Below are positions 17,163-53,306 of a stretch of 64,000 nucleotides of DNA, in pieces (position 1 is the first letter of the stretch; each line of letters starts with the position of its first letter). A program made the translations under genes and the position numbers. The notes beneath the pieces are model-generated. The model ran no database searches and was not told where the DNA came from. It saw nothing but the letters and a program-made list of their open reading frames with translations. The stretch comes from an uncultured Alphaproteobacteria bacterium. Lineage in GTDB: Bacteria; Pseudomonadota; Alphaproteobacteria; Rs-D84. The DNA lies in NCBI GenBank assembly GCA_946613195.1, contig CAMOFE010000001.1, positions 8,151 to 72,150 of the forward strand, in the 5' to 3' direction.

Positions 17163-18451
17163 GCAAATTCCCCGCGCAGGGATGCTTTATTTGCATTGGT
17201 AATTTTTATTTTTGCCATTTGCGGTGCGGTATTTGGGTCAATGTTTACAATACATTGTTGCATATATGGCGTGCGGTATATGGTGTGTTTGCCGGTTTTA
17301 TCTGCGCCTTCGCATAAGCATTCCAGTGTTTTACCAACACACGATACATTAAATTCGCGTTGAATTTCAGACAGCATCGCATCCAATTTATACAGACGTT
17401 CCTTTTTTATGTTTTCAGGCACCTGGTCTGGCATAATTGCAGCGGCGGTGTGTGGACGTGGTGAATACTTGAATGTAAAAGAATTGATATATTTAATTCG
17501 TTGTGCGATATCCATTGTTTGCTGAAAATCATCATCCGATTCGCCTGGGAACCCAACAATAAAGTCAGATGATATTTGTATGTCTGGTCGCGCCACGCGC
17601 AGTTTGTTCACAATATCAATATATGAATCCAGTGAATATGGACGATTCATACGTTTCAGAACATCTGGCGAACCACTTTGTATCGGCATATTCAAGAACG
17701 GTAATAATTTTGGTTCAATGGCAAACATTTCAATTAAATCATCGGTCATCTCGGTTGGATAACTGGATGTGAAACGAATGCGTTTTATTTTGGGCAGGGT
17801 GGCGGCTGCACGAATTAAATCCGACAGCCGATAATTTTCATATTTATATCCATTTACATTTTGCCCCAGAAAACAAATTTCTATCGCGCCAGTTTGGGCG
17901 GCATGTTTTGTGTCGCGTACAACATCCGCATATGGACGCGATATTTCACGACCACGCGTAAATGGGACAATACAATATGTACAGACGTGATTACAACCTT
18001 CTTGGATTGGAATATATGCAACCGCCGGCGAAGAATCCATTTGTGGCATTTCGTCAAATTTTTCCAGGCCACCTAGGTCAATGTTTAATAATGGCGAATC
18101 GGGATTATCTAAAATTTGTGGTAATTTATGATAACTTTGCGGCCCCAACACAAAGTTTAATTCAGGTACACGCCGAAATGCGCCAGACCCAACTTCACGT
18201 GCAACGCAACCAACAATTCCCAACAATGCAGATGGTTTTTTGGCAAGTCTGATGCGCCCCAGTGCAGAAAAAACTTTATCCGTCGCCTTTTCGCGTACAG
18301 AACAAGTGTTTAATATGATTATGTCCGCATCACTCAGTTCAGATGTTTCAGTCATCCCGCGTGCGCGCAACATGGCAGCAATACGCATGCCATCATATAC
18401 ATTCATCTGGCAACCAAAAGTGTGAATAAAGAATTTCTGCATATGGTGCAA
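17159..18451 (-). CDS. miaB: tRNA-2-methylthio-N6-dimethylallyladenosine synthase MiaB
   Basis: UPF0004 N-terminal domain (FIHTFGCQMNVYD), radical-SAM CxxxCxxC (CNHVCTYC), TRAM C-terminus. 430 aa. Confidence 0.9.
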   Translation of the reverse strand: MHHMQKFFIHTFGCQMNVYDGMRIAAMLRARGMTETSELSDADIIILNTCSVREKATDKVFSALGRIRLAKKPSALLGIVGCVAREVGSGAFRRVPELNFVLGPQSYHKLPQILDNPDSPLLNIDLGGLEKFDEMPQMDSSPAVAYIPIQEGCNHVCTYCIVPFTRGREISRPYADVVRDTKHAAQTGAIEICFLGQNVNGYKYENYRLSDLIRAAATLPKIKRIRFTSSYPTEMTDDLIEMFAIEPKLLPFLNMPIQSGSPDVLKRMNRPYSLDSYIDIVNKLRVARPDIQISSDFIVGFPGESDDDFQQTMDIAQRIKYINSFTFKYSPRPHTAAAIMPDQVPENIKKERLYKLDAMLSEIQREFNVSCVGKTLECLCEGADKTGKHTIYRTPYMQQCIVNIDPNTAPQMAKIKITNANKASLRGEFA

Positions 18452-18452
18452 T

Positions 18453-18689
18453 TTATTTCTGTTTTGCCGACATCAATAATGCCGCGGTTGCTGCGCGTTC
18501 ACGATTTTTTGCACGATCTGATACGTACACTGTGCGTGTATGCTTTACATTTTTGCCATGCACATTTGATGTGTATTTTAATTTTTGTGTTGATATTTTA
18601 TGTGGCGCATCAAAAGACAATAATTGTACATTTTTCAATGAATATTTGCTGCCTGTGATAATATCATAATCTAATTGTATTATTTGCAT
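18453..18689 (-). CDS. Small basic protein, unknown function (translationally coupled to miaB)
   Basis: 78 aa, pI very basic, 1-nt gap to the miaB start, in-operon position between gatB and miaB. Confidence 0.35.
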   Translation of the reverse strand: MQIIQLDYDIITGSKYSLKNVQLLSFDAPHKISTQKLKYTSNVHGKNVKHTRTVYVSDRAKNRERAATAALLMSAKQK

Positions 18690-18701
18690 ATCTTTATCCT
18701 T

Positions 18702-18920
18702 TTATTTATGCATTGTTCTGTTAAATGATTTTTGTTTATTCTGAATAACTGTGCGTTTGGCATTATATGCATCACGGTATTTTTCATGTGTCGCATCTGG
18801 TTTAATATCTGTACGCAACGCAGATTTATAACCCATTTCCATACGCATTTTTTGTATTTTTTTAATTTGTTGATTTATAAATTTTTCTATAAATTTTGCA
18901 ATTGTTAACATTTTTTTCAT
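18702..18920 (-). CDS. Small Lys-rich protein, unknown function
   Basis: 72 aa. Its start overlaps the gatB stop (ATGA-type coupling). Lys-rich. Confidence 0.35.
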   Translation of the reverse strand: MKKMLTIAKFIEKFINQQIKKIQKMRMEMGYKSALRTDIKPDATHEKYRDAYNAKRTVIQNKQKSFNRTMHK

Positions 18921-20437
18921 CCTAATTTTTTCTTTAATATTTCATTTACAACCGCCGGGTTTGCCTGACCCGCCGTTGCCTTCATCACATTCCCAACAAA
19001 GAAGCCCAGCAAGCCAACTTTGCCCCCGCGATATTGTTCTACTTGTGCTGGATTTGCAGCAATAACCGCATCCACCGCTGATTCGATTGCGGATGTATCG
19101 GTGATTTGTTCCATACCGAATTTTTTCGCAATTTCATGTGGTGTGCCGGTTTCGCCGTCCAACATTTTAATAAAGATTTCTTTGGCTTGTTTACCGTTGA
19201 TTTCAGATGCTGCAATCATATCAACCAATTCTGCTAAATCAGATGGTGTTATTATGCGCATACCGTCAACTGTGCCAGACTTTTGATTTTCTATATCATA
19301 GTTTTCTGGGTGTGCAAACAATTCAGAAATCATCCAGTTTGCAATCGGTTTGGCACGTATCGGTTTATCACCAACCGCCGCATCATACCAATGTGAAACA
19401 TCTGTTGTTTCTGTCAGGCGCGTTGCGTCATATTCCGACAGACCATATTGCCCCATATACCGCGCACGTGTCGCCGCCGGCAATTCTGGTAATGTCTTGC
19501 GAATGCGTTCAATCATATCATCAGTTATAACCAGTGGTAATAAGTCTGGGTCTGGGAAATAGCGATAGTCCAACGCATCTTCTTTACTGCGCATAACGCT
19601 GGTGGTGCCATCATCTGCGTGGAAACGCATAGTATCCTGGGAAACTTCGCCACCATTTTCATATATTTCAATTTGACGGCGTGCCTCATACTCAATGGCG
19701 GTTTTAATAAACTTAAACGACACCATATTTTTGGTTTCTGTACGTGTGCGGAATGTTTTTTCACCAACGCGTCTTACCGAAACATTTACATCGGCACGCA
19801 TAGAACCTTCTTCCATATTTGCGCGTGATACGCCCAGGGCGCGCGCGATTTCGCGAATTTGTCGCAGGTATCTTTCGGCTTCATCTGGGGACGAAATGTA
19901 CGAATTATTTTCTGGATTTTTTGTGTCCAGGAATGTAACGATTTCCAACAATGCAACACCTGTACGATTATAATCGGCAAAAGATTTTGTTGGATGTACA
20001 TCGTGTTTTAATTTTCCTGCATCTTGTTCCAGGTGCGCACGTTCAATTAAAATCTTTTTTGGATTGCCATCATCGCCGATAATTTCAATATGGCCGCGAC
20101 CAACAATTGGTGCGACTTCGGGTGGTTGTGAAATCTGATATCCCTGGGGCAGGTCAGGATAGAAATATTGTTTACGGGCAAAAATGCTGCGTTTTGATAT
20201 TTCTGCATTTATCCCCAGACCAAATTTAATTGCCTGTTCAACGCAATATTTATTTAATACAGGCAACATGCCAGGCATTGCCACATCAACCATTGAAACC
20301 TGGGTATTGGGGGCAACGGTCGGATTATAGTCCGCAGATGCACCACTGAATAACTTGGAATTAGACAGCACTTCTATATGTGTTTCCAACCCAATTACCA
20401 ATTCCCAATCGCCTGTTTTGCCGTGTATAGTGAACAT
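18917..20437 (-). CDS. gatB: Asp/Glu-tRNA(Asn/Gln) amidotransferase subunit B
   Basis: Full-length GatB (506 aa) with the conserved N-terminus (WE.VIGLE.H..L) and C-terminal YqeY-like tail. Confidence 0.95.
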   Translation of the reverse strand: MFTIHGKTGDWELVIGLETHIEVLSNSKLFSGASADYNPTVAPNTQVSMVDVAMPGMLPVLNKYCVEQAIKFGLGINAEISKRSIFARKQYFYPDLPQGYQISQPPEVAPIVGRGHIEIIGDDGNPKKILIERAHLEQDAGKLKHDVHPTKSFADYNRTGVALLEIVTFLDTKNPENNSYISSPDEAERYLRQIREIARALGVSRANMEEGSMRADVNVSVRRVGEKTFRTRTETKNMVSFKFIKTAIEYEARRQIEIYENGGEVSQDTMRFHADDGTTSVMRSKEDALDYRYFPDPDLLPLVITDDMIERIRKTLPELPAATRARYMGQYGLSEYDATRLTETTDVSHWYDAAVGDKPIRAKPIANWMISELFAHPENYDIENQKSGTVDGMRIITPSDLAELVDMIAASEINGKQAKEIFIKMLDGETGTPHEIAKKFGMEQITDTSAIESAVDAVIAANPAQVEQYRGGKVGLLGFFVGNVMKATAGQANPAVVNEILKKKLG

Positions 20438-22235: not shown

Positions 22236-22703
22236 TTATTTACCTTTGGTGTTTTTCATAATTAAATTTGTCAAAAATTGTAATTGGGCATTGCAATTGA
22301 TTTTCTGTTTTTCCAGTTCCTGTATTGCTTGGGTATGTTCTGCAATTTTCCGTTTGTGTTCGGCGATTTTTAATTGAATATCGCGGGATTGTTGTTGCAG
22401 CGTTTGACTGGCTGTCTGCATTTCAGATACAGTTTTATATTTCATATTTTCATTAAAATACATGGCCAGTTTCATATTTATTTCACCCAAGGTGATTTTA
22501 CCCATATTGCGTATATGGTGTAAATTATCTTGATGTTTTAACAATTCACCAATGGTGCGTATATCCCCATAACCTTTTAAGGTATTAGATGCACGTGTTG
22601 ATAAATTCAACACATCAATAGAAACATCAAATTCATCGTTTTTCATATTATTCTCCATCCATAACTTTTGGTACAGCAAAGTATCCACGTGATACGCCGG
22701 CAT
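22236..22703 (-). CDS. RNA polymerase alpha-subunit C-terminal-domain (alpha-CTD)-like protein with C-terminal coiled coil
   Basis: Segment DVLNLSTRASNTLKGYGDIRTIGELL resembles the alpha-CTD helix-hairpin-helix, followed by a heptad-rich tail (IAEHKRKIAEHTQAIQELEKQK). The likely start is an internal Met just after the gatC stop. Lies between gatC and gatA. Confidence 0.45.
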   Translation of the reverse strand: MPAYHVDTLLYQKLWMENNMKNDEFDVSIDVLNLSTRASNTLKGYGDIRTIGELLKHQDNLHHIRNMGKITLGEINMKLAMYFNENMKYKTVSEMQTASQTLQQQSRDIQLKIAEHKRKIAEHTQAIQELEKQKINCNAQLQFLTNLIMKNTKGK

Positions 22704-22944
22704 TATCAGGTGCGTTTTTTAACACACTGTCGCGAATACCGCCGTCTGTTACCACATCATCGCGCCATGGTAATTCATGTTCTGCGGGGTTTAACATTGC
22801 ATCAACCCCGGTTGTATCAATTCTTTGTAATTTATCCAGCCATTCAATCACAGAATCAATATTCATTTTTTCCAGTTTGTCATCCGTGATATCAATTCGT
22901 ATCAGGTCTGCAAATTTATGTAATTGTTGCTTGCTAAATGCCAT
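22648..22944 (-). CDS. gatC: Glutamyl-tRNA(Gln) amidotransferase subunit C
   Basis: 98 aa with the typical GatC helices (..LARIDI.D..LE....L..IL.W...L). Confidence 0.85.
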   Translation of the reverse strand: MAFSKQQLHKFADLIRIDITDDKLEKMNIDSVIEWLDKLQRIDTTGVDAMLNPAEHELPWRDDVVTDGGIRDSVLKNAPDNAGVSRGYFAVPKVMDGE

Positions 22945-27559: not shown

Positions 27560-28180
27560 TTAATTTTCTTGGGTTGCCAATGCTTTTGCCTGGGCAAACA
27601 GGGTCAGTGATTGTCCCAACAATCCATTTGTAAATGTTTGCGCCAAAATACCGTCTGGTTCTGTATTGCCCAAGTGTTGCAACAATCTGTCTGCGTGCGA
27701 CATATAATTATCCAGGTTGCGTGCAACCTCGGTATCTAATTTAATTGCGCGTCGCAACTTTTCCAATGCAAACGGATTTTTTGCATATTCATCCATAATG
27801 CCGCCAATCGCCCGCCATAACGGGTGTTCAGATGTCTGGCGGGGCATTATATCAATCGCCGCCATAATCGGAATCAAACATTGTAACAAGTCTTGATAAA
27901 TAATTTCTGCGTGTTCTGCAACCGCATTGGTGGCATATTTGCTTTTTAATACAGATTGCATTTTTACAATCAAATTATACTGATATTCCAGAGTTTTGTT
28001 TATTTGCTTGTTTTGTACAGATATACGATAAATTGACCATGCAATTATGCCACATATAACGGCAATAATGCCCAATATTATAAAAACAAAAGTGTCTTGC
28101 ATTTCTTTTCCCTGGTTTTGGACATACCCAAGTATATCATGTTTTTCCGATTCGCGCGATTTTATCTTTTGGTAAATCAC
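27560..28180 (-). CDS. Membrane-anchored hypothetical protein
   Basis: One TM (FVFIILGIIAVICGIIAWSI) then a ~150-aa helical domain. Diverges from the secretin operon. Confidence 0.45.
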   Translation of the reverse strand: MIYQKIKSRESEKHDILGYVQNQGKEMQDTFVFIILGIIAVICGIIAWSIYRISVQNKQINKTLEYQYNLIVKMQSVLKSKYATNAVAEHAEIIYQDLLQCLIPIMAAIDIMPRQTSEHPLWRAIGGIMDEYAKNPFALEKLRRAIKLDTEVARNLDNYMSHADRLLQHLGNTEPDGILAQTFTNGLLGQSLTLFAQAKALATQEN

Positions 28181-28285
28181 ACAAAATCATTTTTTAGAGT
28201 GTTTTTTAGGTCTTGCACAGATTCGGTCAAGTTGATATAATAAGCAAGAAAGAAGGTATAAAAAATATTAGGAAAGGATAATCTT

Positions 28286-29233
28286 ATGTTTCGTAAGATA
28301 TTGATAATAGCGATGTTTGCAACTGCGGCGGGTTATTGTTTCGCCGAAGATAATGTTCACCAAGTTGTAACGAGTGAGGTTTTTTATGACGAAGAATATC
28401 GTCGGATTGATGATAATGTGTATGAAGATATCGTTGAAGAAACCGAAGTGCCTGCGTGGCCATTAGTTGGTTCTGATGCAGACGTAGAAGTTACATGTGA
28501 TCGTGGTGCGTGCAGTAATGTGCGTACACCTGTGGTCGCGCAAACGCCTGTGCCACGACGCGCAGATAATATTCGTATTGTTTCCAAAATTGGTGATGAT
28601 ATGGTTGTTGAAAATAATATAAATATGAGCGGTGCCGGTAACCAATGGTCGGGTGGTGCAGATATGGTGCATGGTATGCAAATCCCGGCGGGGTTTGATA
28701 ACGAATGTTATAATGGCGCAGAAATGCCGTTGTTGCATCGTGAAATTCTGGAAGATGACGGTGGCAGTGTATTGGCTGTATCACGTGGACCATACAATCG
28801 TTGTGGTGGATATGTAAACGATTACGATACATATGTTGCGAAAAGTAAATTAAGCGAAACAGAAAAATTGCGTTGGTTGGCGATGGATGATGCAACAACA
28901 GAATCAACAAAATCTGTTCGCGGTGATATTGTTGTTGATGTAACAACAGATGCGGATGCGGCCCCAGAATTACCAGACCAGGTGCGGTCTTGGGTTGTTG
29001 CAAATGGACAAACATTACGCGAAGTTTTGCAAAGTTGGTGTGATAAAGATGGTTGGGATTTAGTATGGGCAACATCGCGCGAATACCCGATAGAGGCCAG
29101 TGCGGTGTTCAAGGGACGTTTCGTTGATGTTGCATCTGCGCTGGTGCGGAACTTTGGTCGTGCAACACCAATCCCATATGCAAAATTTTACAAGGGAAAT
29201 CGTGTTTTAGTCGTATCCACCACCGAGGAGTAA
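28286..29233 (+). CDS. Secreted TcpQ-domain protein (type IVb pilus secretin partner, TcpQ/PilM-like)
   Basis: Signal peptide (..AAGYCFA|ED). C-terminal ~90 aa (..WVVANGQTLREVLQSWCDKDGWDLVWATSREYPIEASAVFKGRFVDVASALV..FYKGNRVLVV) matches the TcpQ family pattern. Located immediately upstream of a lipoprotein secretin, as tcpQ is to tcpC. Confidence 0.5.
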   Translation: MFRKILIIAMFATAAGYCFAEDNVHQVVTSEVFYDEEYRRIDDNVYEDIVEETEVPAWPLVGSDADVEVTCDRGACSNVRTPVVAQTPVPRRADNIRIVSKIGDDMVVENNINMSGAGNQWSGGADMVHGMQIPAGFDNECYNGAEMPLLHREILEDDGGSVLAVSRGPYNRCGGYVNDYDTYVAKSKLSETEKLRWLAMDDATTESTKSVRGDIVVDVTTDADAAPELPDQVRSWVVANGQTLREVLQSWCDKDGWDLVWATSREYPIEASAVFKGRFVDVASALVRNFGRATPIPYAKFYKGNRVLVVSTTEE

Positions 29234-29274
29234 TAATCCATTAACAGGATGACACATTTGGGAGAGCATAGGAA

Positions 29275-30903
29275 ATGAAAAAAGTATTAAAACTTTTTGT
29301 GTTATGTTTGGCTGTCGGCACGATGGTGGCAGGTTGTGCAAAAAAAGAATCTGCCAAGGTTGCGGCCGCAGTTGATCAAAACTTTATCAATGCGTATGAC
29401 GCGTTTGAGATGGCAAAAAATCCACGCGCCAAGGTCGCCAGTGGCGATACTGTTTCTATGTCCGAAGGTGTTTGGTTGGGTAATAAATCAACCGTGTTGG
29501 AACACAAAAATAATCTGCCATCCCAGTTTGAGACGGATACAGGTGTAACAATTTTGTTAAACGAACCTGTTACACTGCAAGTGTTTGCAAATAATATAAA
29601 TTCCATTACAGGTATCCAGGTAAAAATAGACAGCCAAATTAATTCTGAAAAATTAAAAAGGACAATGAATATTGCCTACACTGGGAAACTGTCGGATTTG
29701 TTGTCCCAGGTCGCAACAGATTTAGATTTGCTGTGGTACTATGACAAAAGTTCTATTGTGTTTTACGAAACAGAAACAAAAACATTTACATTATATGCGC
29801 TGGGGACAGATGTGTCGTATCAATCATCTGTTCAGACAGATGAAGGAACGCAGGTGTCTTTGGAATCAACATTGCGCGAATGGGAAGAGGTTGAAAAGAC
29901 AATCGCATCTATTATTGGTAATACTGATAACGCGGAATTTACCGTTTCGCGCAGTTTAGGAACAATAACAGTTACCGCGCCACCGTCTGTGCAGACGCGT
30001 GTTGGTGAATATATTGCGCGTCAAAACCGCAGATTGTCGCAACTGGTAACGATTGATGTAAAAGTATTACAGGTATCAATTACTAATAATTCGGCATTTG
30101 GCCTGAATTTGGCGGCGGCGATTAACGCGGCATCAGGATTGAATATCGTTGCAAATCCCAAGAATAATTTAGCCGCGACCGAGGCCAGTTCAATGAATAT
30201 TGCTGTATTATCTAATACATTGTCGGCAATGACAGGTGCAACGCATTTGGTTAATGGTGTTGAAACAGCCGGCGCATATACATCTGATGATATAAACAAT
30301 GGTTCGTTGTCTGGTGTTGCAGGTTCCAGTGCGCTGATAGAGGCATTGGCCAAGCAGGGTAAAGTGTCTTTAGTTACAAATGTTGGTGTTACAACGCGTA
30401 ATAATCGTGTTGCCCCGGTAAATAATACGCGTACCACAGGTTATATTAAACGATTTGAATCGCGTACATTTACATCTGTGGAATCATCAACTGTGGATCA
30501 AGATAACTTGGAAACAGGTTTTGCTATGCAGTTGTTGCCAAATGTGCTGGAAAACGGGAAAATATTGTTGCTGTTCAGAATGTCTGTGCGTGAATTAATC
30601 AAAATGTCCAGCCAAACGATTGGCGAGGTTACCTTGCAATTACCCGAAGTTGAAGAACGCAGTTTTATGCAAGAAGTTATTATGGAATCAGGTCAAATGT
30701 TGGTCGTGTCCGGGTTTGAGAAGCAAACAAATAACGATACGCGTTATGGTTTGGGCGATCCTGATTTTATGGCGTTATCTGGTTCGCGTGAATCTGCTGC
30801 GCAACGCGATGTTTTGGTTGTTATATTAACACCACAAGTTTTGGTCAGTCCAATGGATGCCGAACGTAGTATTCAGCAACATTGGGGTGCACCATTAAAT
30901 TAA
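29275..30903 (+). CDS. Lipoprotein secretin of the type IVb pilus class (TcpC/BfpB/PilN-like)
   Basis: Lipobox (MVAGC). C-terminal secretin domain (..GQMLVVSGFEKQTNNDTRYGLGDPDFMALSGSRESAAQRDVLVVILTPQVL). 542 aa, the size of T4b secretins. Confidence 0.7.
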   Translation: MKKVLKLFVLCLAVGTMVAGCAKKESAKVAAAVDQNFINAYDAFEMAKNPRAKVASGDTVSMSEGVWLGNKSTVLEHKNNLPSQFETDTGVTILLNEPVTLQVFANNINSITGIQVKIDSQINSEKLKRTMNIAYTGKLSDLLSQVATDLDLLWYYDKSSIVFYETETKTFTLYALGTDVSYQSSVQTDEGTQVSLESTLREWEEVEKTIASIIGNTDNAEFTVSRSLGTITVTAPPSVQTRVGEYIARQNRRLSQLVTIDVKVLQVSITNNSAFGLNLAAAINAASGLNIVANPKNNLAATEASSMNIAVLSNTLSAMTGATHLVNGVETAGAYTSDDINNGSLSGVAGSSALIEALAKQGKVSLVTNVGVTTRNNRVAPVNNTRTTGYIKRFESRTFTSVESSTVDQDNLETGFAMQLLPNVLENGKILLLFRMSVRELIKMSSQTIGEVTLQLPEVEERSFMQEVIMESGQMLVVSGFEKQTNNDTRYGLGDPDFMALSGSRESAAQRDVLVVILTPQVLVSPMDAERSIQQHWGAPLN

Positions 30904-30955
30904 AAAAGTAAAAAAACATGTTGTGTTACATAGTGATTTTGTGATATAAATCATT

Positions 30956-31387
30956 ATGAAAAAAAGAGAGGGACCGCAAGCGCGGATATTAAGGGACTTA
31001 GAGATGCGTTTGTTAAAGTTATGTTTAGGATGTTCTGTGATTATTGCAACATTTAATTGTTGTATATTCAATGCGGATGCTGAAATTGCCAGTGTTGGTT
31101 ATGTTACCAGCAAGATATCAAATACTGTTTCAGATCAATCAACAAATGACCAGGCAGCCAGTGCGGCCGCAACATATACATTCAGTTCTAATGCCAATAA
31201 TTTAACATCTGGTACTGTTGCGCCTGCGCGTTTACCAGATGCAACCACATCCGCCAAAGGTGCGGTTATGATTGGCACAACGGCCAGCACGGTTGCTGTT
31301 GGAAATGATCAACGGTTTGATACGGTCGCAACAACTGCACCATCGGGCAGTCCAGATACAGGTCGTGCATTTATTTGGTTTCAATAA
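30956..31387 (+). CDS. Small secreted Ser/Thr/Ala-rich protein with phage-tail-fibre-like repeat
   Basis: Hydrophobic/Cys N-terminal segment (LLKLCLGCSVIIATFNCC), then ..NLTSGTVAPARLPDATTSAKGAVMIGTTASTVAVGNDQR.., which resembles the phage tail-fibre repeat (ATT..KG.V.LAT....AGTD..KAVTP..L). Confidence 0.4.
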   Translation: MKKREGPQARILRDLEMRLLKLCLGCSVIIATFNCCIFNADAEIASVGYVTSKISNTVSDQSTNDQAASAAATYTFSSNANNLTSGTVAPARLPDATTSAKGAVMIGTTASTVAVGNDQRFDTVATTAPSGSPDTGRAFIWFQ

Positions 31388-31413
31388 AAAATCCCGCAAA
31401 GTGGGATTTTTTA
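31386..31413. terminator. Bidirectional Rho-independent terminator
   Basis: AAAAAATCCCGCAAAGTGGGATTTTTTA between two convergent genes. Confidence 0.6.
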
Positions 31414-31899
31414 TTTTTGTTTAGTATTTATTTGATTTATAAATTTATTTCGTATTTGTATTTGATGATTCATATCTTGTCTGGATGCGTGATTCATTCG
31501 TTCCAGCGGATTAACAACGCACGCCATAACAATATTTGTTGGATACAGTTGTAATACAGGTTCGCCTGTTTCTTTGTCCAGATATTCAACAATTGTGCTG
31601 GCCAATTTTTCGCCCATAACAGGTTTCAGTGTATCAAATGCATTGACCATATTGTTTGCACCGGGATTTGGAAATTGTGTGGTGTGCAACCAATCAGAAG
31701 TATTTTGCACTGTTTCGCCGTTTAACACAATAACCGCCAAAGGCGTCATTTGACATAATTCCCATGCAGATAGATTTGCCATAACATCAGATATTTTTAC
31801 AATATATGTATTTTTTTTCTTGCGTGTTGGACCAAAAGTTTTATTTTTTTCGCTTTGTACTGGTGTTTTATTATTATCGCGTTTGCCGAAAAGTTTCAT
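31411..31899 (-). CDS. Hypothetical protein with Lys-rich N-terminus
   Basis: 162-aa ORF with good coding periodicity. No motif recognised. Confidence 0.45.
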   Translation of the reverse strand: MKLFGKRDNNKTPVQSEKNKTFGPTRKKKNTYIVKISDVMANLSAWELCQMTPLAVIVLNGETVQNTSDWLHTTQFPNPGANNMVNAFDTLKPVMGEKLASTIVEYLDKETGEPVLQLYPTNIVMACVVNPLERMNHASRQDMNHQIQIRNKFINQINTKQK

Positions 31900-32010
31900 G
31901 GTAATATCCTTTGGTTATATTGAATATATAACACAGTTGCACAATTTGTCAATATTGGTTCATAAAAAAATACCCCATTTTGGGGTACAAAAATATTAAA
32001 TTATAAAAAT

Positions 32011-33026: not shown

Positions 33027-33836
33027 ATGAAAAAAACAGTTATCTTTTTAATATCTGCTTTGCTTTTAATGCCGGCATTTGCGGCGCCTGGGGATTCTGC
33101 ACGGCGCAGTATGTCTGATCAAATGGTTGCCGCACCACGTGCAACGGCATCGGTGGGTCAGTTAAATGCGACATCGGCGGCCAAAAAGTCCAGTATCAAG
33201 GTTGAAACAGATATGATTGCGGCACCGGTTGCAGATGAACAAAATCGCCGTGATAAAGAAAAAGAAGCGTGCCAGGGTAATAATATCGGTATTGGAAATA
33301 CTTTTGTTTGGGCGTCGCGTTACAGTAATTCATCCAGTTATGCATCTATGGTAGAAGATGTCAACAACCCTGAAAATAACGTTTGTTTTGTCAAGGTTGA
33401 TATGAAATCCAGCGATTCGCGTATAAATTTATCTGATATCCCCAGTAAATATTTTGTTATGGGTAATACAATTAATTGTGGTTCTTGGGTTGACGAAGAC
33501 GCATTACAAAAACGTATCTTGGATGCCAAGAAAACAGGACGCGCGTTGGCAACCGTTGGCGGTGTTGTTGGTGGTGCGGGCTTGGGCGTTGGCGCAATGG
33601 AATTGTTTGGTAACAAATTAATTGGTGGCAAGGTTATGGGTCAAAAAGATGAAAAACTGACAGAAACCGAAGTGTTTGTATCCCAGATGTTGGTTCTGAA
33701 ACAAGAAAATCGCGCAGAATATGATAAAATAATTAAAGAGTTGGAAAGCATACAATCGGAATGCAAGAATAATAACATTAAAGAATGTGCTGAATTGGAT
33801 TATGCCGCTTTGCTGAAAACACAGGATAACCAATAA
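33027..33836 (+). CDS. Secreted hypothetical protein with Gly-zipper segment
   Basis: Signal peptide (..LLMPAFA). 269 aa. Gly-zipper GGVVGGAGLGVGAMELFG near the C-terminal third, then a charged helical tail with 2 Cys. Confidence 0.5.
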   Translation: MKKTVIFLISALLLMPAFAAPGDSARRSMSDQMVAAPRATASVGQLNATSAAKKSSIKVETDMIAAPVADEQNRRDKEKEACQGNNIGIGNTFVWASRYSNSSSYASMVEDVNNPENNVCFVKVDMKSSDSRINLSDIPSKYFVMGNTINCGSWVDEDALQKRILDAKKTGRALATVGGVVGGAGLGVGAMELFGNKLIGGKVMGQKDEKLTETEVFVSQMLVLKQENRAEYDKIIKELESIQSECKNNNIKECAELDYAALLKTQDNQ

Positions 33837-33899: not shown

Positions 33900-34928
33900 A
33901 TGCATATGTCTGAATTATTTGCGCGTTTGTTGATTTTGCGTACACCTGGAATTGGCCCGGCGAAATATAGTGCACTGATTCGTAAATTTGGCGATGTTCG
34001 TACCGCCGCAGATAGTTTACAATCAAACACCGCGCATTGTGATATGGTGCGCCGTGAAATGGATTTGGCGGCACAATTAAATATACATTATATATGTGAT
34101 GACGATTCGGTATATCCTGCAAATTTGCGGATGGTTAAAAATCATCCACCTGTAATCAGTGTGCGCGGAAATATTGAAACATTATCGCGACCGATTGTGT
34201 CAATTGTTGGTACACGTCATGCAACAGGTGTTGGTATGCGATTCGTTGCAGATTTATCACGTGAATTTGCATCGCGTGGTTTTGCTGTTGCATCTGGGAT
34301 GGCGATTGGATGTGATACCGCCGCGCATCGTGGTGCATTAAATGTGGTTGGCACGAATCAGACTATTGCAGTTTTGGCGGGTGGTGTGGATTATATCTGG
34401 CCGGCTGAAAACGAATCGCTGTATTGGGAAATTGTCGCGCGCGGTGCGGTTATCAGTGAAATGCCTGTGGGTTTTGTCCCCATCGCAACTAATTTTATTC
34501 AACGTAATCGTTGGGTTGCAGGATTGTGTGATAAATTAATACTGGGCGAGGCGGATATAAATTCAGGCAGTATGGCAACAGCCCGATTCGCAATAGAATA
34601 CGGTCGCGAAATTTGGGCGATACCGTCGCATCCCGCAGATTCGCGCAGCACGGGCCCAAATTCGTTGATTGCGTCCCACGCGGCGAAATTATGTTCGGGG
34701 GTATCGGACTTTTTTGGCGATGACAAAACATCTGCCAAATCAGAAAAAAATGAAAAAAATTTAGATTCGGAAAATTCTGTTTTAGATGCGTTGGGAACAA
34801 TTCCTGTGTCTGAATCTGTATTGGCACAAATTGTCAAAAAATCTGTTTCGGAAATAAAACGCGAATTGGTCGTGTTAGAATTACAAGGTTTGGCGCGCAA
34901 AACAGATACAGGTTATGTCCGTATATGA
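33900..34928 (+). CDS. dprA: DNA-processing protein A (DprA/Smf)
   Basis: Rossmann-like DprA core (IVGTRHAT..G......LA..G..VASGMA.G.D..AH.GAL) and a C-terminal winged-helix tail. 342 aa. Confidence 0.85.
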   Translation: MHMSELFARLLILRTPGIGPAKYSALIRKFGDVRTAADSLQSNTAHCDMVRREMDLAAQLNIHYICDDDSVYPANLRMVKNHPPVISVRGNIETLSRPIVSIVGTRHATGVGMRFVADLSREFASRGFAVASGMAIGCDTAAHRGALNVVGTNQTIAVLAGGVDYIWPAENESLYWEIVARGAVISEMPVGFVPIATNFIQRNRWVAGLCDKLILGEADINSGSMATARFAIEYGREIWAIPSHPADSRSTGPNSLIASHAAKLCSGVSDFFGDDKTSAKSEKNEKNLDSENSVLDALGTIPVSESVLAQIVKKSVSEIKRELVVLELQGLARKTDTGYVRI

Positions 34929-36651: not shown

Positions 36652-37701
36652 ATGCGTGAATGTAATGCGATGGGGGAAATTCCAATGTTATTAAAACGTT
36701 TTGCAATATTTACAATTCTGGCGGGTGTGTTTGCAACATATGCTGCCACCGCCGCGGTTGACCCAAGAACAGAGTGTGTAAGAGAGGGTTGGTATACTAC
36801 TTATTATTATAATACTTCTGAAATAATTCAGGCAGATTATGCCATTTATTTTGATAATAATGTATCAACTATACCTGAAGATTGTAAAACAGAAGTGCAA
36901 AGTGTAATTAATGAATTGAAAAAGAAAAACAACGATATTGAAACAATATTATTGTTTGGTTCGGCAGATGCAACAGCGGGTGCAAATAGGGATGCAGAAT
37001 TAGGTATGAAACGTGCAAATACTGTTGCTAATTTATTAAAATATGCTGGTTTGGATTTTTGTTATTCTGAAAAATGTGATAATAGAACAGCAAAAGTATC
37101 CATGGGTGACGCAATGAATCGGGCGCAAGGATATATGGATTCTGATTTTTTTGCACGTGCTGTTTATATGTTCGTGATTTACAAGGGTGATGTTTGCAAT
37201 AAATCTACTATGGGCAGTATAGATGGTTTGTTAAGTCGCGTTAATAAACTATTAACAGAAAAACCAAATGATACGACATTAACAAAGGTAAAATCACAGT
37301 TAGAAACGGCAAAACAAACTTGTGGCGAAGTGAATAAAGTATTATTCCGTTCAGAACGTGAAAGTATTATGACGGCAATCAAATATGCAATTGATAATTT
37401 CCCTGAATTAAAATCTGTGGTAACTGTTGATGTCAGTTTATCTGCGCGAATAATGGCAATCAGGGCACGGTTGTCGGGAATGAAACGTTCTGCATGGAAA
37501 ACGACAGACGGTAAATTTAACACTGCGCGTCTGGCATCGGATTCAGTTGCGGGTGTTGTGCTGGGAACCGCCGGCGGTTTAATCACCAGTCATCTGGTTA
37601 AAAAGAGCCAATTAAAGAAAGGTATGGAAGATATTAAATGTGCAATCGGTGGACAAGAGGTTGCATCATACGGTGATGACTTTACTGTTGGGGTACGCTA
37701 A
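36652..37701 (+). CDS. Secreted protein with OmpA/MotB-like peptidoglycan-binding domain in its N-terminal half
   Basis: Signal peptide. ..ILLFGSADATAGANRDAELGMKRANTVANLL..FFARAVYMFVI resembles the OmpA_C-like core (G.TD..G....N..LS..RA..V...L, NRRVE.). The C-terminal 170 aa are unknown. Confidence 0.5.
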   Translation: MRECNAMGEIPMLLKRFAIFTILAGVFATYAATAAVDPRTECVREGWYTTYYYNTSEIIQADYAIYFDNNVSTIPEDCKTEVQSVINELKKKNNDIETILLFGSADATAGANRDAELGMKRANTVANLLKYAGLDFCYSEKCDNRTAKVSMGDAMNRAQGYMDSDFFARAVYMFVIYKGDVCNKSTMGSIDGLLSRVNKLLTEKPNDTTLTKVKSQLETAKQTCGEVNKVLFRSERESIMTAIKYAIDNFPELKSVVTVDVSLSARIMAIRARLSGMKRSAWKTTDGKFNTARLASDSVAGVVLGTAGGLITSHLVKKSQLKKGMEDIKCAIGGQEVASYGDDFTVGVR

Positions 37702-37728
37702 AAAAATCCGGCAACGCCGGATTTTTTA
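37702..37728 (+). terminator. Rho-independent terminator
   Basis: AAAAAATCCGGCAACGCCGGATTTTTTAT. Confidence 0.65.
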
Positions 37729-37734
37729 TTAAAA

Positions 37735-37792
37735 CGCAGAGAGCAAAGAGCAACGAAAGTACCAGCAACCAAAAAATCATAAATCATAAATC
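37735..37792. repeat. Dispersed repeat family B copy
   Basis: CAGAGAGCAAAGAGCAACGAAAGTACCAGCAACCAAAAAATCATAAATCATAAATC, matching 8984-9034 and 45035-45085. Confidence 0.6.
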
Positions 37793-39715
37793 TTGAACAG
37801 TGTCTTGTTTTATGATAAAATTGCATTCAGAGAGAATATGAAATCAATTACGCGTTTTTTTGCGTTTGTTTTATGCGCGGTGCCACTGTGCGCGGCGGCT
37901 GCGCCTGTTGCAACCACCGCCGGCAGTAATTTAACCGCATATAATCCAACCACAGGTGCAACAAATAATAATATGTGGAATACACTGATGAATGGACGCG
38001 GTGCGGCGGGCGGAAATAACGCGGCACCGGCAGATTTTGGAAACTGTAATGCACTGATAATTCGTTGCGCATCACCAAAGTGTGCTAATGGTGGATGCAC
38101 AGATATGGATGTCGCATCATCTATTGTGCGCGGATGTGTTAATTCCAATGAAAATTGTAAAAAATATGGCGATGATTTGGTTGAATACATATCTGCACAG
38201 TTGGTCGCATCTTCTAATGCAAAAATAAATGCTGCCAATGTTGCGGCGCAAAATGCCACTGCTGCGGCTGTGGCACAACAAAATGCCCAGCAAATGGCAG
38301 AAATGCAACAACAGATGCAACAGATGCAGGCAGAAATGGCGCAACAAAATGCGGCAACTGTTCAGGCAATGCAGGCGGCACTGGATGAACAGAAACAATT
38401 AACCGCAGATGCAATCGCAAATGCAAACGCAACACAACAAAGTGCGCCGTCTTATACTGCGCCGGTGCCAACAAATTCAGAATATGATAATGGGTTAACC
38501 AACGCCCAGATTATTGCGGCGCAAAATGGTGTGTCTGCGGATGTTTTGGCGCGTGAACAAATTGTTGGTGAAATAATGTCAAAACTGGAAAATGCAGAAA
38601 CCGCATTAAAGACATTAAAGACCACAATGCAAGATGCATTTGATTATGCGGGTTGTGATTCATTTGGTAATAATTGCAGTGGGCCAAAACGCGTGTCTGC
38701 GTTCAAGTCGCGTGCGATAAAATTCTTTGATCCATATAATACGGTGTTGGACGAATTATATGATGCGTTAATCACTGCCCAGGCCGCCGGTGTTGATATA
38801 ACAGATATCTATATGATGCTGGAAGGGTCATGTAATGTCTGGGGACAATATTTGTGTTCACAGACAGAACTTGGTGCGTATGCCGATGGGAGTAGTTTGC
38901 CAAAAAGTTGTGATAAGAATACTGGTAAAAGTATAAAATCTGGCAGTACCAAAGGGGGGCGTGATTGTGTAATTGGGCAACCAATTCCCCCCGAAGACAG
39001 TCCATTGTGCACACTGCAAAAAACATACGCCGATGGCGAAAGTGTGCGTCGCGCATGGTTGTACCCCGAAGAAGGTGATGATGAAACCCAGGGTGGTGCA
39101 ATACGCGTTGGGTGTGCGTCGTCTGCGCTGGATAATTCTAAATTCTTTCGCAGTCGCAAAAAACAGGCACAAATTGATATTGAAATACTGGAACGTATAA
39201 TTGAACAAGATGCATCTGCGTCCAGTGGTTTTACCATGTTTGGTGCGCGCCGGGACGATGGCGCACGTCGTGAACAAACATACGGTGCATGTGCGATTGG
39301 CGAAACAATGTATGCAGATTTGCAGAAAATAACCGCAACAAAAAAATTGCCAGACAAAATATGTATGAAACAACGCGATGCGATTGAAAAAGTCCGCAAT
39401 GATGCCCCATTGGCACTTGCAACAGGTGGCATGTCCAAGACAATCTTGAAATATCACGAACAATGTGAAAAAGAAGATAGAGAGAGTGTTACGGATTATT
39501 GGGAATGTTTGTGTCCAAAAATAGGTAATGGTTACACAAAATCTAGTGAAGGTGAATATTGTTCTTGCGGAACGGATTCTAATAAATATTGGGGCAAGGA
39601 TAATTATTACGAATGTTTGACCGATGACCAAATATGCACACGTAAACAGTTTTGTACAGGTACACAAAAATCACAATGGAATCAGACTGAAAAAACATGT
39701 GGTGATTGCAAATAA
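37793..39715 (+). CDS. Large secreted Cys-rich protein with Ala/Gln-rich coiled-coil segment, unknown function
   Basis: Signal peptide at the internal MKSITRFFAFVLCAVPLCAAAAP. ~30 Cys in CxxC/CxnC patterns in the N- and C-terminal regions. Central region QQNAQQMAEMQQQMQQMQAEMAQQNAATVQAMQAAL. 640 aa. Confidence 0.5.
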   Translation: MNSVLFYDKIAFRENMKSITRFFAFVLCAVPLCAAAAPVATTAGSNLTAYNPTTGATNNNMWNTLMNGRGAAGGNNAAPADFGNCNALIIRCASPKCANGGCTDMDVASSIVRGCVNSNENCKKYGDDLVEYISAQLVASSNAKINAANVAAQNATAAAVAQQNAQQMAEMQQQMQQMQAEMAQQNAATVQAMQAALDEQKQLTADAIANANATQQSAPSYTAPVPTNSEYDNGLTNAQIIAAQNGVSADVLAREQIVGEIMSKLENAETALKTLKTTMQDAFDYAGCDSFGNNCSGPKRVSAFKSRAIKFFDPYNTVLDELYDALITAQAAGVDITDIYMMLEGSCNVWGQYLCSQTELGAYADGSSLPKSCDKNTGKSIKSGSTKGGRDCVIGQPIPPEDSPLCTLQKTYADGESVRRAWLYPEEGDDETQGGAIRVGCASSALDNSKFFRSRKKQAQIDIEILERIIEQDASASSGFTMFGARRDDGARREQTYGACAIGETMYADLQKITATKKLPDKICMKQRDAIEKVRNDAPLALATGGMSKTILKYHEQCEKEDRESVTDYWECLCPKIGNGYTKSSEGEYCSCGTDSNKYWGKDNYYECLTDDQICTRKQFCTGTQKSQWNQTEKTCGDCK

Positions 39716-40437
39716 TGAATAATAGACAGAATATCTTTTATAGGTTTTTATATGGCGCGGTGGCGTGTGTGTTTGCGTGCGTTGTTTCGTCTGGCGCGTT
39801 TGCCGCGGGTGATGGCGGGTGCGATAATGAAGAAAATGATTACATAAATCCTGAACTGGCGCTGTGTTCGGTGCATGCATATAATATGGGACTGGATGAA
39901 AACCCCAGCAGTGATATGCGCCCGGTTATGCGTGGAGTGGTGGGACTGAAAACCACGGTTATCACGCAACAGATGAAAAAACAGTATGATTATATGGACG
40001 CGATGATTCGTCGTTTTCGTGTACAATTACAAAAGGCGACATTACAAACAAAATTACAGGCTGCCGGTGCTGCTGCATCTGATTCATCGGGTGGTTCTGA
40101 ACGATTCGTTTCCAACGACCGTAATATATTTATCGCCGGCGTTAATAATTGTAACAATGAAATAACATCATTAAAAAAATATGAATGTTTATATAATAAT
40201 CTGAATACTATTACTAATTCGTCGGCAAACGGGTCAAATGTTACAGTTGAGTTAAAGAAACAATTGGCAAATGATTATAGCCTTACCAAAGGCAGCAAGT
40301 CTGAATGCAGGAAATACACAGATATAAAAACTAGAAAAATATTTCAGACTTGTTTAGATGATTTAAGGGACGTAGTTCGCACAGAGTATGAAAAAGAACA
40401 ACGCGAAGATATGAAAGCTCGAAATAGCAGATATTAA
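39706..40437 (+). CDS. Secreted hypothetical protein, co-transcribed with the preceding gene
   Basis: 10-nt overlap with the upstream gene. Signal peptide (..SSGAFAAGDGGC). 243 aa with a helical, charged C-terminus. Confidence 0.45.
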   Translation: MQIMNNRQNIFYRFLYGAVACVFACVVSSGAFAAGDGGCDNEENDYINPELALCSVHAYNMGLDENPSSDMRPVMRGVVGLKTTVITQQMKKQYDYMDAMIRRFRVQLQKATLQTKLQAAGAAASDSSGGSERFVSNDRNIFIAGVNNCNNEITSLKKYECLYNNLNTITNSSANGSNVTVELKKQLANDYSLTKGSKSECRKYTDIKTRKIFQTCLDDLRDVVRTEYEKEQREDMKARNSRY

Positions 40438-44018: not shown

Positions 44019-44759
44019 TTGTTTTTTGCATTATGCACTATGCCCGTTGCCATTTGCATTAGTCCAGTCAATGCAGAAGAATACTGTGTTCCGACAAATT
44101 ATACAATAACATATCAATTGGGCGGTGGTTGTAATGGTACCGCGCCATCATCTGTAACGGTTGCCCGTGGTGCGAATTTTACGACACCAAATGCCGCAAC
44201 GGCGTGTGGCGACAATACCGTTACAAAATGGAAAATAGACGGCACAAATGATTACATAACATCAAACACAACATTGCCATACGTGTGGACGAATGATATA
44301 ACATTGGTTGCAGGCGCCACCGTTGTCAGCCTATCTGCGCCGTATTCTGTAAATACCAGCATACACGGTTATCAGAACGACAGTCGTAGTGCATACGGTG
44401 CAGAGTCATTCAATTGCACCGGATGCAACGATAATGAATGGCATGCGGACTTCAGTTATGGCACGGTAACTGGCATTGCCAGTTGTAACAGCACCCCTGG
44501 CGATAATCAGGATATGAAATGGACAAATCCGACAACAGCCAGTTCAGACAGTATGAGCAGCAGCAGTACCGGTCAATATTGCTGGTGTAAAATGACAGGC
44601 TTTGCCGGGCAGTCATTGTCGGTTGCGCCGTGGGGGTTCTTCTACGACTACGACAGTGCGGACAGTTGCGCGGCCGGCTGTGCGTCCCACGTTGCCGCTC
44701 ATCCCGGATTCCGCGGGGCGGTGTATAACGCATCGGGCGTGATTAATTCCGAAGAATAA
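44019..44759 (+). CDS. Secreted Cys-rich hypothetical protein
   Basis: Probable signal peptide (..ICISPVNA|EEYC). 246 aa with ~14 Cys and Thr/Asn-rich beta-like segments. Start is uncertain (TTG/ATG). Confidence 0.45.
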   Translation: MFFALCTMPVAICISPVNAEEYCVPTNYTITYQLGGGCNGTAPSSVTVARGANFTTPNAATACGDNTVTKWKIDGTNDYITSNTTLPYVWTNDITLVAGATVVSLSAPYSVNTSIHGYQNDSRSAYGAESFNCTGCNDNEWHADFSYGTVTGIASCNSTPGDNQDMKWTNPTTASSDSMSSSSTGQYCWCKMTGFAGQSLSVAPWGFFYDYDSADSCAAGCASHVAAHPGFRGAVYNASGVINSEE

Positions 44760-52832: not shown

Positions 52833-53306
52833 GTGTGTGCAATGAAACAAGAATCTGGACGCTCTATGATTGAAATGATGGGCGTGTTGGCAATTATGGG
52901 GGTTATCACGGTTGGGGCGACATTGTTGATATCAACAGCAATGCGCACACAAAAACGCAGCCAAGTTAACGATGAAATTATTCAACTGGTTGTCGGTGTG
53001 CGCCAATTATTGGGCGAATATGACGATTATTCGCATATTAACAACAGCACTATATTTGGTGCGATTGGTATGTCGGATAAAAACCCATATGGCGGAACGT
53101 ATGAAATTTCTGTAAATCCGTCAAATACGCGCCAGTTCGTGATTTCTATCAATGGTTTGCCAAAATCTGATTGCGAATATTTAATCACACGCGCATGGTC
53201 TGATTCTGTGGGATATACTGTGTCTGGCGGACGTGAAGGCGGTGCAACCGGCAATTGTGGTGATACAGACGCACGAAATTCTGTTCAGATAATATATGGT
53301 GAATAA
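52833..53306 (+). CDS. Type IV pilin (class III signal peptide; prepilin)
   Basis: ..KQESG|RSMIEMMGVLAIMGVITVGATLLI. Gly at -1, Glu at +5, ~20-residue hydrophobic helix, and a C-terminal Cys pair (SDCEYL...GNCGD) for the D-region disulfide. 157 aa. Confidence 0.65.
   Translation: MCAMKQESGRSMIEMMGVLAIMGVITVGATLLISTAMRTQKRSQVNDEIIQLVVGVRQLLGEYDDYSHINNSTIFGAIGMSDKNPYGGTYEISVNPSNTRQFVISINGLPKSDCEYLITRAWSDSVGYTVSGGREGGATGNCGDTDARNSVQIIYGE

Follow-up and report, generated by a model that had tools for sequence, protein, structure and literature searches.

The 64-kb stretch of DNA analysed here (the window) comes from "Candidatus Enterousia", an alphaproteobacterium of the order Rs-D84 with a genome of ~0.95 Mb, and carries at 28181-31387 a gene for a TcpQ-domain protein directly followed by a gene for a lipoprotein secretin. 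These two genes very probably encode the outer-membrane part of a type IVb (T4b) pilus that is conventional except for its dispersed genes and whose fibre pilin and inner-membrane module are encoded elsewhere. The machine type is thus one already known, and what is distinctive is the fragmented gene organisation together with an exceptionally conserved secretin. The pilus proteins encoded in the window are the following, with lengths in amino acids (aa).

28286..29233, + strand: TcpQ/BfpG-domain protein, 315 aa (Pfam, Protein Data Bank (PDB) entry 9u5s chain R, hhalign)
29275..30903, + strand: lipoprotein secretin, 542 aa, of the PilN/BfpB type IVb class (Pfam, NCBIfam, BfpB sequence and fold matches)
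52842..53306, + strand: type IVb major prepilin, 154 aa from ATG (hidden Markov model (HMM) of PilS/Bundlin-annotated pilins; the open reading frame (ORF) opens at a GTG at 52833)

The TcpQ-domain protein and the lipoprotein secretin

As an earlier sequence-only reading of this DNA had proposed, the first gene encodes a secreted protein with a C-terminal TcpQ domain, and the HMM comparison that it had called for gives a match to the Pfam family TcpQ (PF10671) at residues 234-311 (E 3.5e-17, 62.7 bits with a cut-off of 27). The protein begins with a Sec signal peptide, continues with an N-terminal region of ~210 aa that contains Cys and is little conserved, and ends in the C-terminal TcpQ/BfpG (N0-like) domain at ~230-315. 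Residues 229-313 match BfpG, chain R of PDB entry 9u5s (E 8e-15), and hhalign against the TcpQ proteins of complete operons in related bacteria gives a probability of 100% (E 2e-44). At 315 aa the protein is longer than its counterparts in relatives (223-247 aa) and is not a small single-domain partner of the kind seen in the BfpG chain (114 aa). Its assignment to the TcpQ/BfpG family follows from the PF10671 score above cut-off and from the position of the gene directly 5′ of the secretin gene, with 41 nt from its end to the secretin start, so that the order known from tcpQ-tcpC and bfpG-bfpB is kept, as had also been proposed.

The second gene product, read earlier as a 542-aa lipoprotein with a C-terminal secretin domain, is borne out as such by a Pfam Secretin match (PF00263, residues 357-523, E 3.2e-13, 50.1 bits with a cut-off of 27.5) and by a lipobox, ..GTMVAG-C21, the Cys21 of which is invariant in homologue alignments of 9 and 32 sequences and is the putative acylated lipoprotein anchor. 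Behind the lipobox the order of elements is an LG-like helix and partner-binding segment (~22-80), N0 (~85-175), N3 (~200-260), an insert (~315-345) and the barrel (~360-525). BfpB (9u5s_A, E 1.3e-42) is the only PDB sequence match. An AlphaFold2 model of moderate confidence (predicted local distance difference test score, pLDDT, of 64, with residues 51-77 and 272-362 unreliable) contains a helix at 2-48, a disordered linker at 51-77, N0-like and N3-like domains at ~85-175 and ~200-260, and a barrel at 360-525. Foldseek with this model again places BfpB first (9u5s_A, E 7e-31, TM-score 0.60), followed by InvG of type III secretion systems (T3SS; 7e-17), PulD/GspD of type II secretion systems (T2SS; ~1e-14) and PilQ of type IVa (T4a) pili (5e-14). 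The secretin as modelled would therefore comprise an LG-type helix and partner-binding region, N0, N3 and barrel, with BfpB as the closest fold. The insert of ~25-30 aa before the barrel (residues ~315-345, window positions 30217-30309) is genus-specific, ~63% conserved and of low model confidence, and it is absent from the secretins of the sister lineage (515-521 aa, 71-82% identical).

The best NCBIfam family for the secretin is TIGR02520 (PilN) with 235 bits, below the equivalog cut-off of 287.65, and the protein is therefore classed as a divergent member of the type IVb class rather than as a PilN equivalog. Some homologues are annotated "Flp pilus assembly secretin CpaC" or "GspD/PulD", as would be expected if the secretin belonged to a T2SS, T3SS, Tad or T4a system, but this assignment is scarcely credible: the models for SctC (26.7 bits, cut-off 238) and MshL (93.8 bits, cut-off 250) score far below PilN, no PDB sequence other than BfpB is matched, the next Foldseek class lies 14 orders of magnitude behind BfpB, and the partners encoded in complete operons of relatives are PilO (PF06864) and PilS/Bundlin pilins.

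The cognate pilin and the scattered operon

The pilin gene at 52.8 kb lies 22 kb from the tcpQ-like and secretin genes and had been described as an orphan that might belong with them to a dispersed T4b pilus. Its product carries the prepilin leader MKQESG followed by RSMIEMMGVLAIMGV, with Gly at -1, Glu at +5 and a hydrophobic helix, and the leader of the complete-operon pilins, EQSG followed by RSMVEMLGVLAIIGV, is near-identical to the QESG and RSMIEMMGVLAIMGV of the window protein. A direct Pfam scan of the window pilin returns N_methyl only, at E 0.0024 and under the cut-off. A major-pilin HMM, built from the pilins of loci L093-L096 with precomputed PF05307/PF08805 matches, finds the segment 52824-53303 at E 3e-17. 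The protein thus combines a class III signal with PilS/Bundlin similarity, and because of the HMM match and the near-identical leader it is the cognate T4b major pilin, in keeping with the dispersed pilus that had been suggested.

In the window, where profile searches took in all 792 stop-to-stop segments, HMMs of the complete operons detect only the TcpQ protein (E 4e-52), the secretin (E 8e-156) and the 52.8-kb pilin, and neither these HMMs nor tblastn find homologues of PilO, PilP, the ATPase, the platform protein or PilT. In the window the pair does not share an operon with genes for PilO, PilP, ATPase and platform, and the earlier statement that no assembly ATPase, platform or peptidase is encoded nearby holds, since the ORFs scanned also contain no Peptidase_A24.

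Complete T4b operons are present in related reduced gut alphaproteobacteria (loci L084, L089-L096, L110 and L124), of which those of L089-L092 belong to a lineage other than Enterousia. Their order is TcpQ protein, secretin, PilO (PF06864), an unknown protein in the PilP position, T2SSE ATPase and T2SSF platform. In L093-L096, which represent two lineages, a PilS-like protein and one to three PilS/Bundlin pilins follow the platform, and L095 and L096 also encode a PilT-like ATPase. The prepilin peptidase gene is unlinked in the complete operons seen as well. Compared with the window, the proteins of these operons are 32-43% (secretin), 35-53% (TcpQ-domain protein) and 31-34% (pilin) identical and the pilin leader is shared, and they are true orthologues. 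Genes of type IV secretion systems (T4SS), for a TrbC/VirB2-like protein and a VirD4 coupling protein, lie directly upstream of complete operons (L084:6612-9215, L093:2366-2713, L095:1613-2786), and in L084 comEC lies two genes downstream of the operon (17496-19133), which hints at an ancestral tie of this pilus to conjugation or DNA transfer.

The remaining operon genes are found in Enterousia at a distance. A metagenome scan with an ATPase alignment, which extended the search for ATPase and platform genes beyond the locus as the sequence-only reading had recommended, recovers the congeneric contig Ga0310690_10000071 (223,596 bp, GC content 41.8%; locus L125). It carries sufB, the TcpQ gene (308 aa) and the gene for secretin P0094 (542 aa, 84% identical to that of the window) at 46.5-52.1 kb, and lpxK-lpxC-orf-PilO-PilP-ATPase-platform, with an ATPase of 548 aa and a platform protein of 356 aa, at 167-189 kb; a distance of ~127 kb separates the two loci, which share one strand. 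Identity between the Enterousia ATPase and the query ATPase is 54-55%. The same split, with ~170 kb between the parts, is seen on the sister-lineage contig Ga0265298_10000005. Among 80 ATPase loci the secretin gene is adjacent in 36, and a further 15 show pilO-P-ATPase-platform with no secretin gene within 6.6-9.9 kb upstream. Since the ATPases of these 15 detached inner-membrane loci are 71-83% identical to that of Enterousia, the split characterises a whole clade. Locus L087 (7402-11554), which has the closest secretin (43%), represents an intermediate state of the operon break-up: a T2SSF platform gene stands inverted ~1 kb 5′ of the tcpQ-secretin pair, a PhdYeFM antitoxin gene lies 3′ of the secretin gene, and no ATPase gene is found within 10 kb.

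As the pilin gene is 22 kb away and the PilO-PilP-ATPase-platform genes are more than 100 kb away on the congeneric contig, an ancestral single operon has come apart in Enterousia, its genes now lying in three or more pieces of the chromosome. Of the possibilities raised earlier, namely a T4b pilus in minimal or dispersed form or a novel secretion apparatus, the dispersed T4b pilus is the one that agrees with the split operon and the cognate pilin, and neither a minimal system nor a novel secretion apparatus is indicated. It had also been allowed that the secretin could be of T2SS or T3SS class with its full operon elsewhere; the remaining genes do lie at a distance, yet they form the matching T4b module, and the secretin itself is T4b in class. 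The pair could further be an orphan outer-membrane module with no pilus machine, such as a stand-alone export or uptake pore, in line with the lack of ATPase, platform, PilO and PilP genes in the window and with the unusual conservation of the secretin. This explanation is very improbable and largely refuted by the ATPase gene that accompanies pilO, pilP and the platform gene on the same congeneric contig as the secretin gene, and the window itself retains an intact cognate prepilin gene.

Several points weigh against the dispersed T4b pilus, among them the PilN score below cut-off and the moderate confidence of the secretin model given above. The inner-membrane module is seen on a congeneric contig rather than in the genome of the window strain, of which the window covers 64 kb. 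Peptidase_A24 is found neither in the window ORFs scanned nor in any of the loci retrieved, and a minor pilin, a PilL-like protein and a retraction ATPase are not located for the Enterousia loci seen. In a genomic survey of Rs-D84 (PMC12306168) the one lineage reported to have type IV pili is a different one, and the biological role of the pilus is purely a matter of inference.

The best-characterised counterpart of the pair is BfpB-BfpG, in which BfpG, an N0-like homologue of TcpQ, CofC and LngC that is necessary for assembly, binds at 17:17 to the "LG domain" of BfpB, consisting of the lipid anchor and a partner-binding region ahead of N0 (PMC12531336). By analogy, the lipoprotein secretin would be fixed in the outer membrane through acylated Cys21 and extend down to the N0 ring with its N-terminal helix and linker, and the TcpQ domain would clamp the secretin linkers around the N3 ring and so stabilise a large multimeric ring. 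Homology and co-location on the congeneric contig show that the fibre is built from the PilS/bundlin-type pilin of 52842-53306 and assembled by the PilO-PilP-ATPase-platform module more than 100 kb away; once polymerised by ATPase and platform, the pilus would pass through the secretin ring as in the BfpB-BfpG system.

Conservation, synteny and neighbouring genes

Close homologues of the secretin (81-91% identity) occur in ~80 species-level metagenome-assembled genomes from rumen and gut, labelled "Candidatus Enterousia" or Alphaproteobacteria, and their sources include a closed Enterousia chromosome of 958,618 bp (OZ007020.1). A scan of genome collections with the secretin gave loci of Enterousia alone, and exact look-ups with the window secretin and with P0001, which is 100% identical to it, matched no record. 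The synteny sufC-sufB-orf(-), tcpQ-like-secretin, variable slot, rpsT(-)-plsY-orf-dprA-dnaA is shared by the 80 species loci, human-gut relatives and the sister lineage, and in the window the pair is flanked by sufC/sufB and rpsT/plsY, as stated before, with dprA at 33900-34928. Across ~80 Enterousia species loci the identities to the window proteins are as follows.

Secretin: median 83.8%, minimum 81%
GyrB: median 89.8%
GatA: median 80.1%
SufB: median 76.6%
RpsT: median 74%
SufC: median 69%
DprA: median 65%
DnaA: median 65.0%
TcpQ-domain protein, whole: median 60%

The secretin is more conserved than SufB, GatA and DnaA and ranks below GyrB in the 80 species, which suggests that the pilus is central to a partner-dependent lifestyle, and the secretin complex is among the most conserved of Enterousia proteins. 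Conservation across Enterousia is 89-97% in the TcpQ domain (residues 241-315) of its protein and 22-60% in much of the N-terminal part. Residues 41-100 of the secretin are 84-93% conserved, and this matched conservation of the two regions fits, by analogy, the LG-linker binding mode described for BfpB and BfpG (PMC12531336).

The conserved position also bears on whether the pilus assists conjugation in the manner of the R64 thin pilus, as a mating-pair stabilising remnant or component of an integrated conjugative element. Of 2918 matching plasmid records 2475 are conjugative, with their genes annotated as PilN family, and the TrbC/VirB2-like and VirD4 coupling protein genes adjoin complete operons of relatives (L084, L093-L096). 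Such an origin is nonetheless improbable for the Enterousia pair, which occupies the same core position from sufBC to rpsT in ~80 Enterousia species and in the sister lineage, has the GC content of its surroundings, has no integrase, relaxase or T4SS genes near it in the 64-kb window and includes a secretin more conserved than most housekeeping neighbours, unlike accessory mobile DNA.

Three co-directional ORFs are present at the locus as described earlier (28286-29233, 315 aa; 29275-30903, 542 aa; 30956-31387, 143 aa), and the third had been counted as part of a three-gene module and as a protein with repeats of phage-tail-fibre type. Neither claim is upheld. The gene 3 protein matches no Pfam family at E<=1, Phage_fiber_2 (PF03406) included, contains a single A-T-T-S-A-K-G-A-V-like motif and shows a weak match (E 2e-5) to phrog_5207, a large phage family of unknown function. 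It is found at >70% coverage in 7 of the 80 Enterousia species loci, with ~31% identity, and the gap from the secretin gene to rpsT varies from 66 to 4619 bp (65 species loci); the conserved unit therefore consists of two genes rather than three. Gene 3 is strain-variable cargo in a hypervariable slot, outside the pilus machine.

The slot region of the window (30904-32010) holds gene 3 and a minus-strand ORF at 31411-31899. In human-gut relatives the slot encodes Cys-rich proteins of 434-592 aa (L001:11685-13463, L002:12060-13364), and a C-terminal transmembrane segment plus tail, "FNTARLASDS...GGQ.V..GD.F.VG", is common to slot proteins and to the OmpA-domain protein of 36652-37701, an indication that variable surface proteins with a C-terminal anchor form a family here. 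A series of secreted Cys-rich proteins (349, 640, 243 and 246 aa) is encoded at 36652-40437 and 44019-44759. One OmpA domain aside, they have next to no matches in Pfam, and they may act at the surface or in adhesion as proteins specific to this lineage.

Signals that could delimit transcription are found on both sides of the locus.

28214..28241, + strand: promoter-like site, TGCACA, 16-nt spacer, TATAAT, with a TG extended -10, 45 nt 5′ of the tcpQ-like start codon
31383..31415, strand not assigned: hairpin with a 15-pair stem and T-run, the only strong terminator, 3′ of gene 3 (terminator scan and sequence)

The promoter-like site lies within the region 28181-28285 that had been marked as a promoter region and agrees with 10 of 12 consensus positions in a consensus scan, which is a consensus match only, and the number of promoter-like sites in the intergenic region is not above shuffled expectation. 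The terminator scan finds no terminator-like site between the secretin gene and gene 3, and the hairpin is likely a bidirectional terminator that ends the transcription unit in this strain.

Otherwise the window is ordinary origin-proximal chromosome, with ftsI, recJ, mraY, ftsW, murG, gatCAB, sufBC, rpsT, plsY, dprA, dnaA, gyrB, dnaJ, genes of a resistance-nodulation-division (RND) pump, uvrC, dnaN, efp and tolB. Divergent from the tcpQ promoter region is up206 (27560-28180, - strand), which encodes a 206-aa single-pass membrane protein with a helical domain and no Pfam family and is kept in 74 of 80 species at ~64% identity. Between plsY and dprA, orf269 (33027-33836) encodes a 269-aa secreted or membrane protein with no family match, present in 59 of 80 loci at ~50% identity. 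Both were considered as diverged remnants of PilL, PilO, PilP, platform or pilin genes and rejected, with hhalign probabilities of at most 3.5%. A small gene at 22239-22646 (- strand), between gatC (22651-22944) and gatA, encodes a domain like the C-terminal domain (CTD) of the RNA polymerase alpha subunit (PF03118, E 2e-12) with a coiled coil; tblastn gives no match to this gene in any of the 80 Enterousia species loci, 65 of which have gatC.

Biological role and comparison with known systems

Rs-D84 bacteria, Enterousia included, are described in the genomic survey as having genomes of <1 Mb with no tricarboxylic acid cycle or respiration; nucleotide biosynthesis and standard transporters are lacking as well, and a life in dependence on partners is proposed for them there (PMC12306168). 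As judged from this ecology and from conservation, and thus as a weaker conclusion than the identity of the machine, the most likely function of the pilus is contact with the surface of a partner or host, in adhesion or aggregation, and for an organism without nucleotide synthesis the pilus may have a further use in taking up DNA. The chief functional alternative to contact is this DNA uptake, in view of the comEC gene near the L084 operon, the nearby dprA and the nucleotide auxotrophy; an R64-like mating role is a lesser one, suggested by the T4SS genes next to complete operons in relatives.

If DNA uptake were the main function, the same dispersed T4b machine would be a competence-type pilus bringing DNA through the secretin for nucleotide scavenging or for recombination with DprA. 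Only 3 kb separate dprA from the secretin gene upstream of it, comEC (PF03772) is two genes beyond the complete operon in L084, and the lack of nucleotide biosynthesis and standard transporters reported for Rs-D84 genomes (PMC12306168) would agree with such a role. The earlier association of dprA with the module does not stand, however, as it is positional only: dprA occurs in nearly all bacteria and here belongs to the conserved core block rpsT-plsY-orf-dprA-dnaA, so its position is no evidence of linkage. No ComEC homologue is found in the window and no retraction ATPase for the Enterousia loci seen. Known competence pili are of T4a or Com type, and the roles of characterised T4b pili, such as the bundle-forming pilus (BFP; PMC12531336), the toxin-coregulated pilus (TCP) and the R64 thin pilus, are in aggregation, adhesion or mating. 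DNA uptake as the main function is on these grounds unlikely, although less so than a mating role, and contact is preferred.

It is possible, if only tentatively, that the scattered T4b pilus is an essential organelle of an obligate partner-dependent lifestyle in Rs-D84, acting as a tether to the host or partner microbe or reeling in DNA as a source of nucleotides. If so, this would explain why the secretin and the partner interface are conserved above most housekeeping proteins and why the genes have survived the break-up of the operon, and a T4b pilus would have a near-essential place among the core functions of a bacterium that is not a pathogen, comparable with the type IV pili found in Saccharibacteria or Bdellovibrio. 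A full-looking T4b pilus in Enterousia is new in that it is not reported for Rs-D84 in the genomic survey (PMC12306168). Enterousia and Rs-D84 are widespread uncultured gut and rumen bacteria thought to depend on partners, no machinery for contact or uptake is known to have been described in them, and the pilus is a concrete candidate for attaching to them or feeding from them. With its genes scattered, the pilus can be missed by operon-based or KEGG-module annotation, and an "orphan" secretin in a reduced genome needs a check of the whole chromosome before it is labelled a minimal or novel system.

The closest known system is BfpB-BfpG of enteropathogenic Escherichia coli (9u5s), which likewise has a lipoprotein secretin with N-terminal helix and partner-binding segment, N0, N3 and barrel and, directly upstream, the gene of an N0-like TcpQ-family partner; both chains are matched by the Enterousia proteins. 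Identity is only ~22-26%, however, and the BfpG chain of 114 aa differs from the Enterousia partner of 315 aa with its N-terminal extension of ~210 aa. The genus-specific insert of ~25-30 aa before the barrel, known from sequence and model, also sets the Enterousia secretin apart from BfpB. The bfp genes form a single plasmid operon, whereas those of Enterousia are chromosomal and the pair lies apart from the remaining operon.

The PilN secretins of R64 and IncI-type plasmids (TIGR02520) constitute the best NCBIfam family for the Enterousia secretin, and their plasmids share the ancestral order of the relatives, with TcpQ-family protein, secretin, PilO, unknown gene, ATPase, T2SSF and pilins. 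The E. coli plasmid CP091397.1 has the same order as the complete operons, with a peptidase and a transglycosylase in addition. The Enterousia secretin is only 25-28% identical to these and scores below the equivalog cut-off, and its genes, unlike those of the plasmids, are off mobile elements, distributed over at least three loci, and have no linked peptidase or transglycosylase.

In Vibrio cholerae tcpQ precedes tcpC, and the TcpC-TcpQ proteins of TCP resemble the Enterousia pair in that a TcpQ domain (PF10671) is paired with a lipoprotein secretin, a likeness drawn from the Pfam name. The tcp genes form a pathogenicity-island operon with accessory genes of its own. The complete T4b operons of the related gut alphaproteobacteria differ from the Enterousia arrangement in forming one contiguous operon, often beside T4SS genes.

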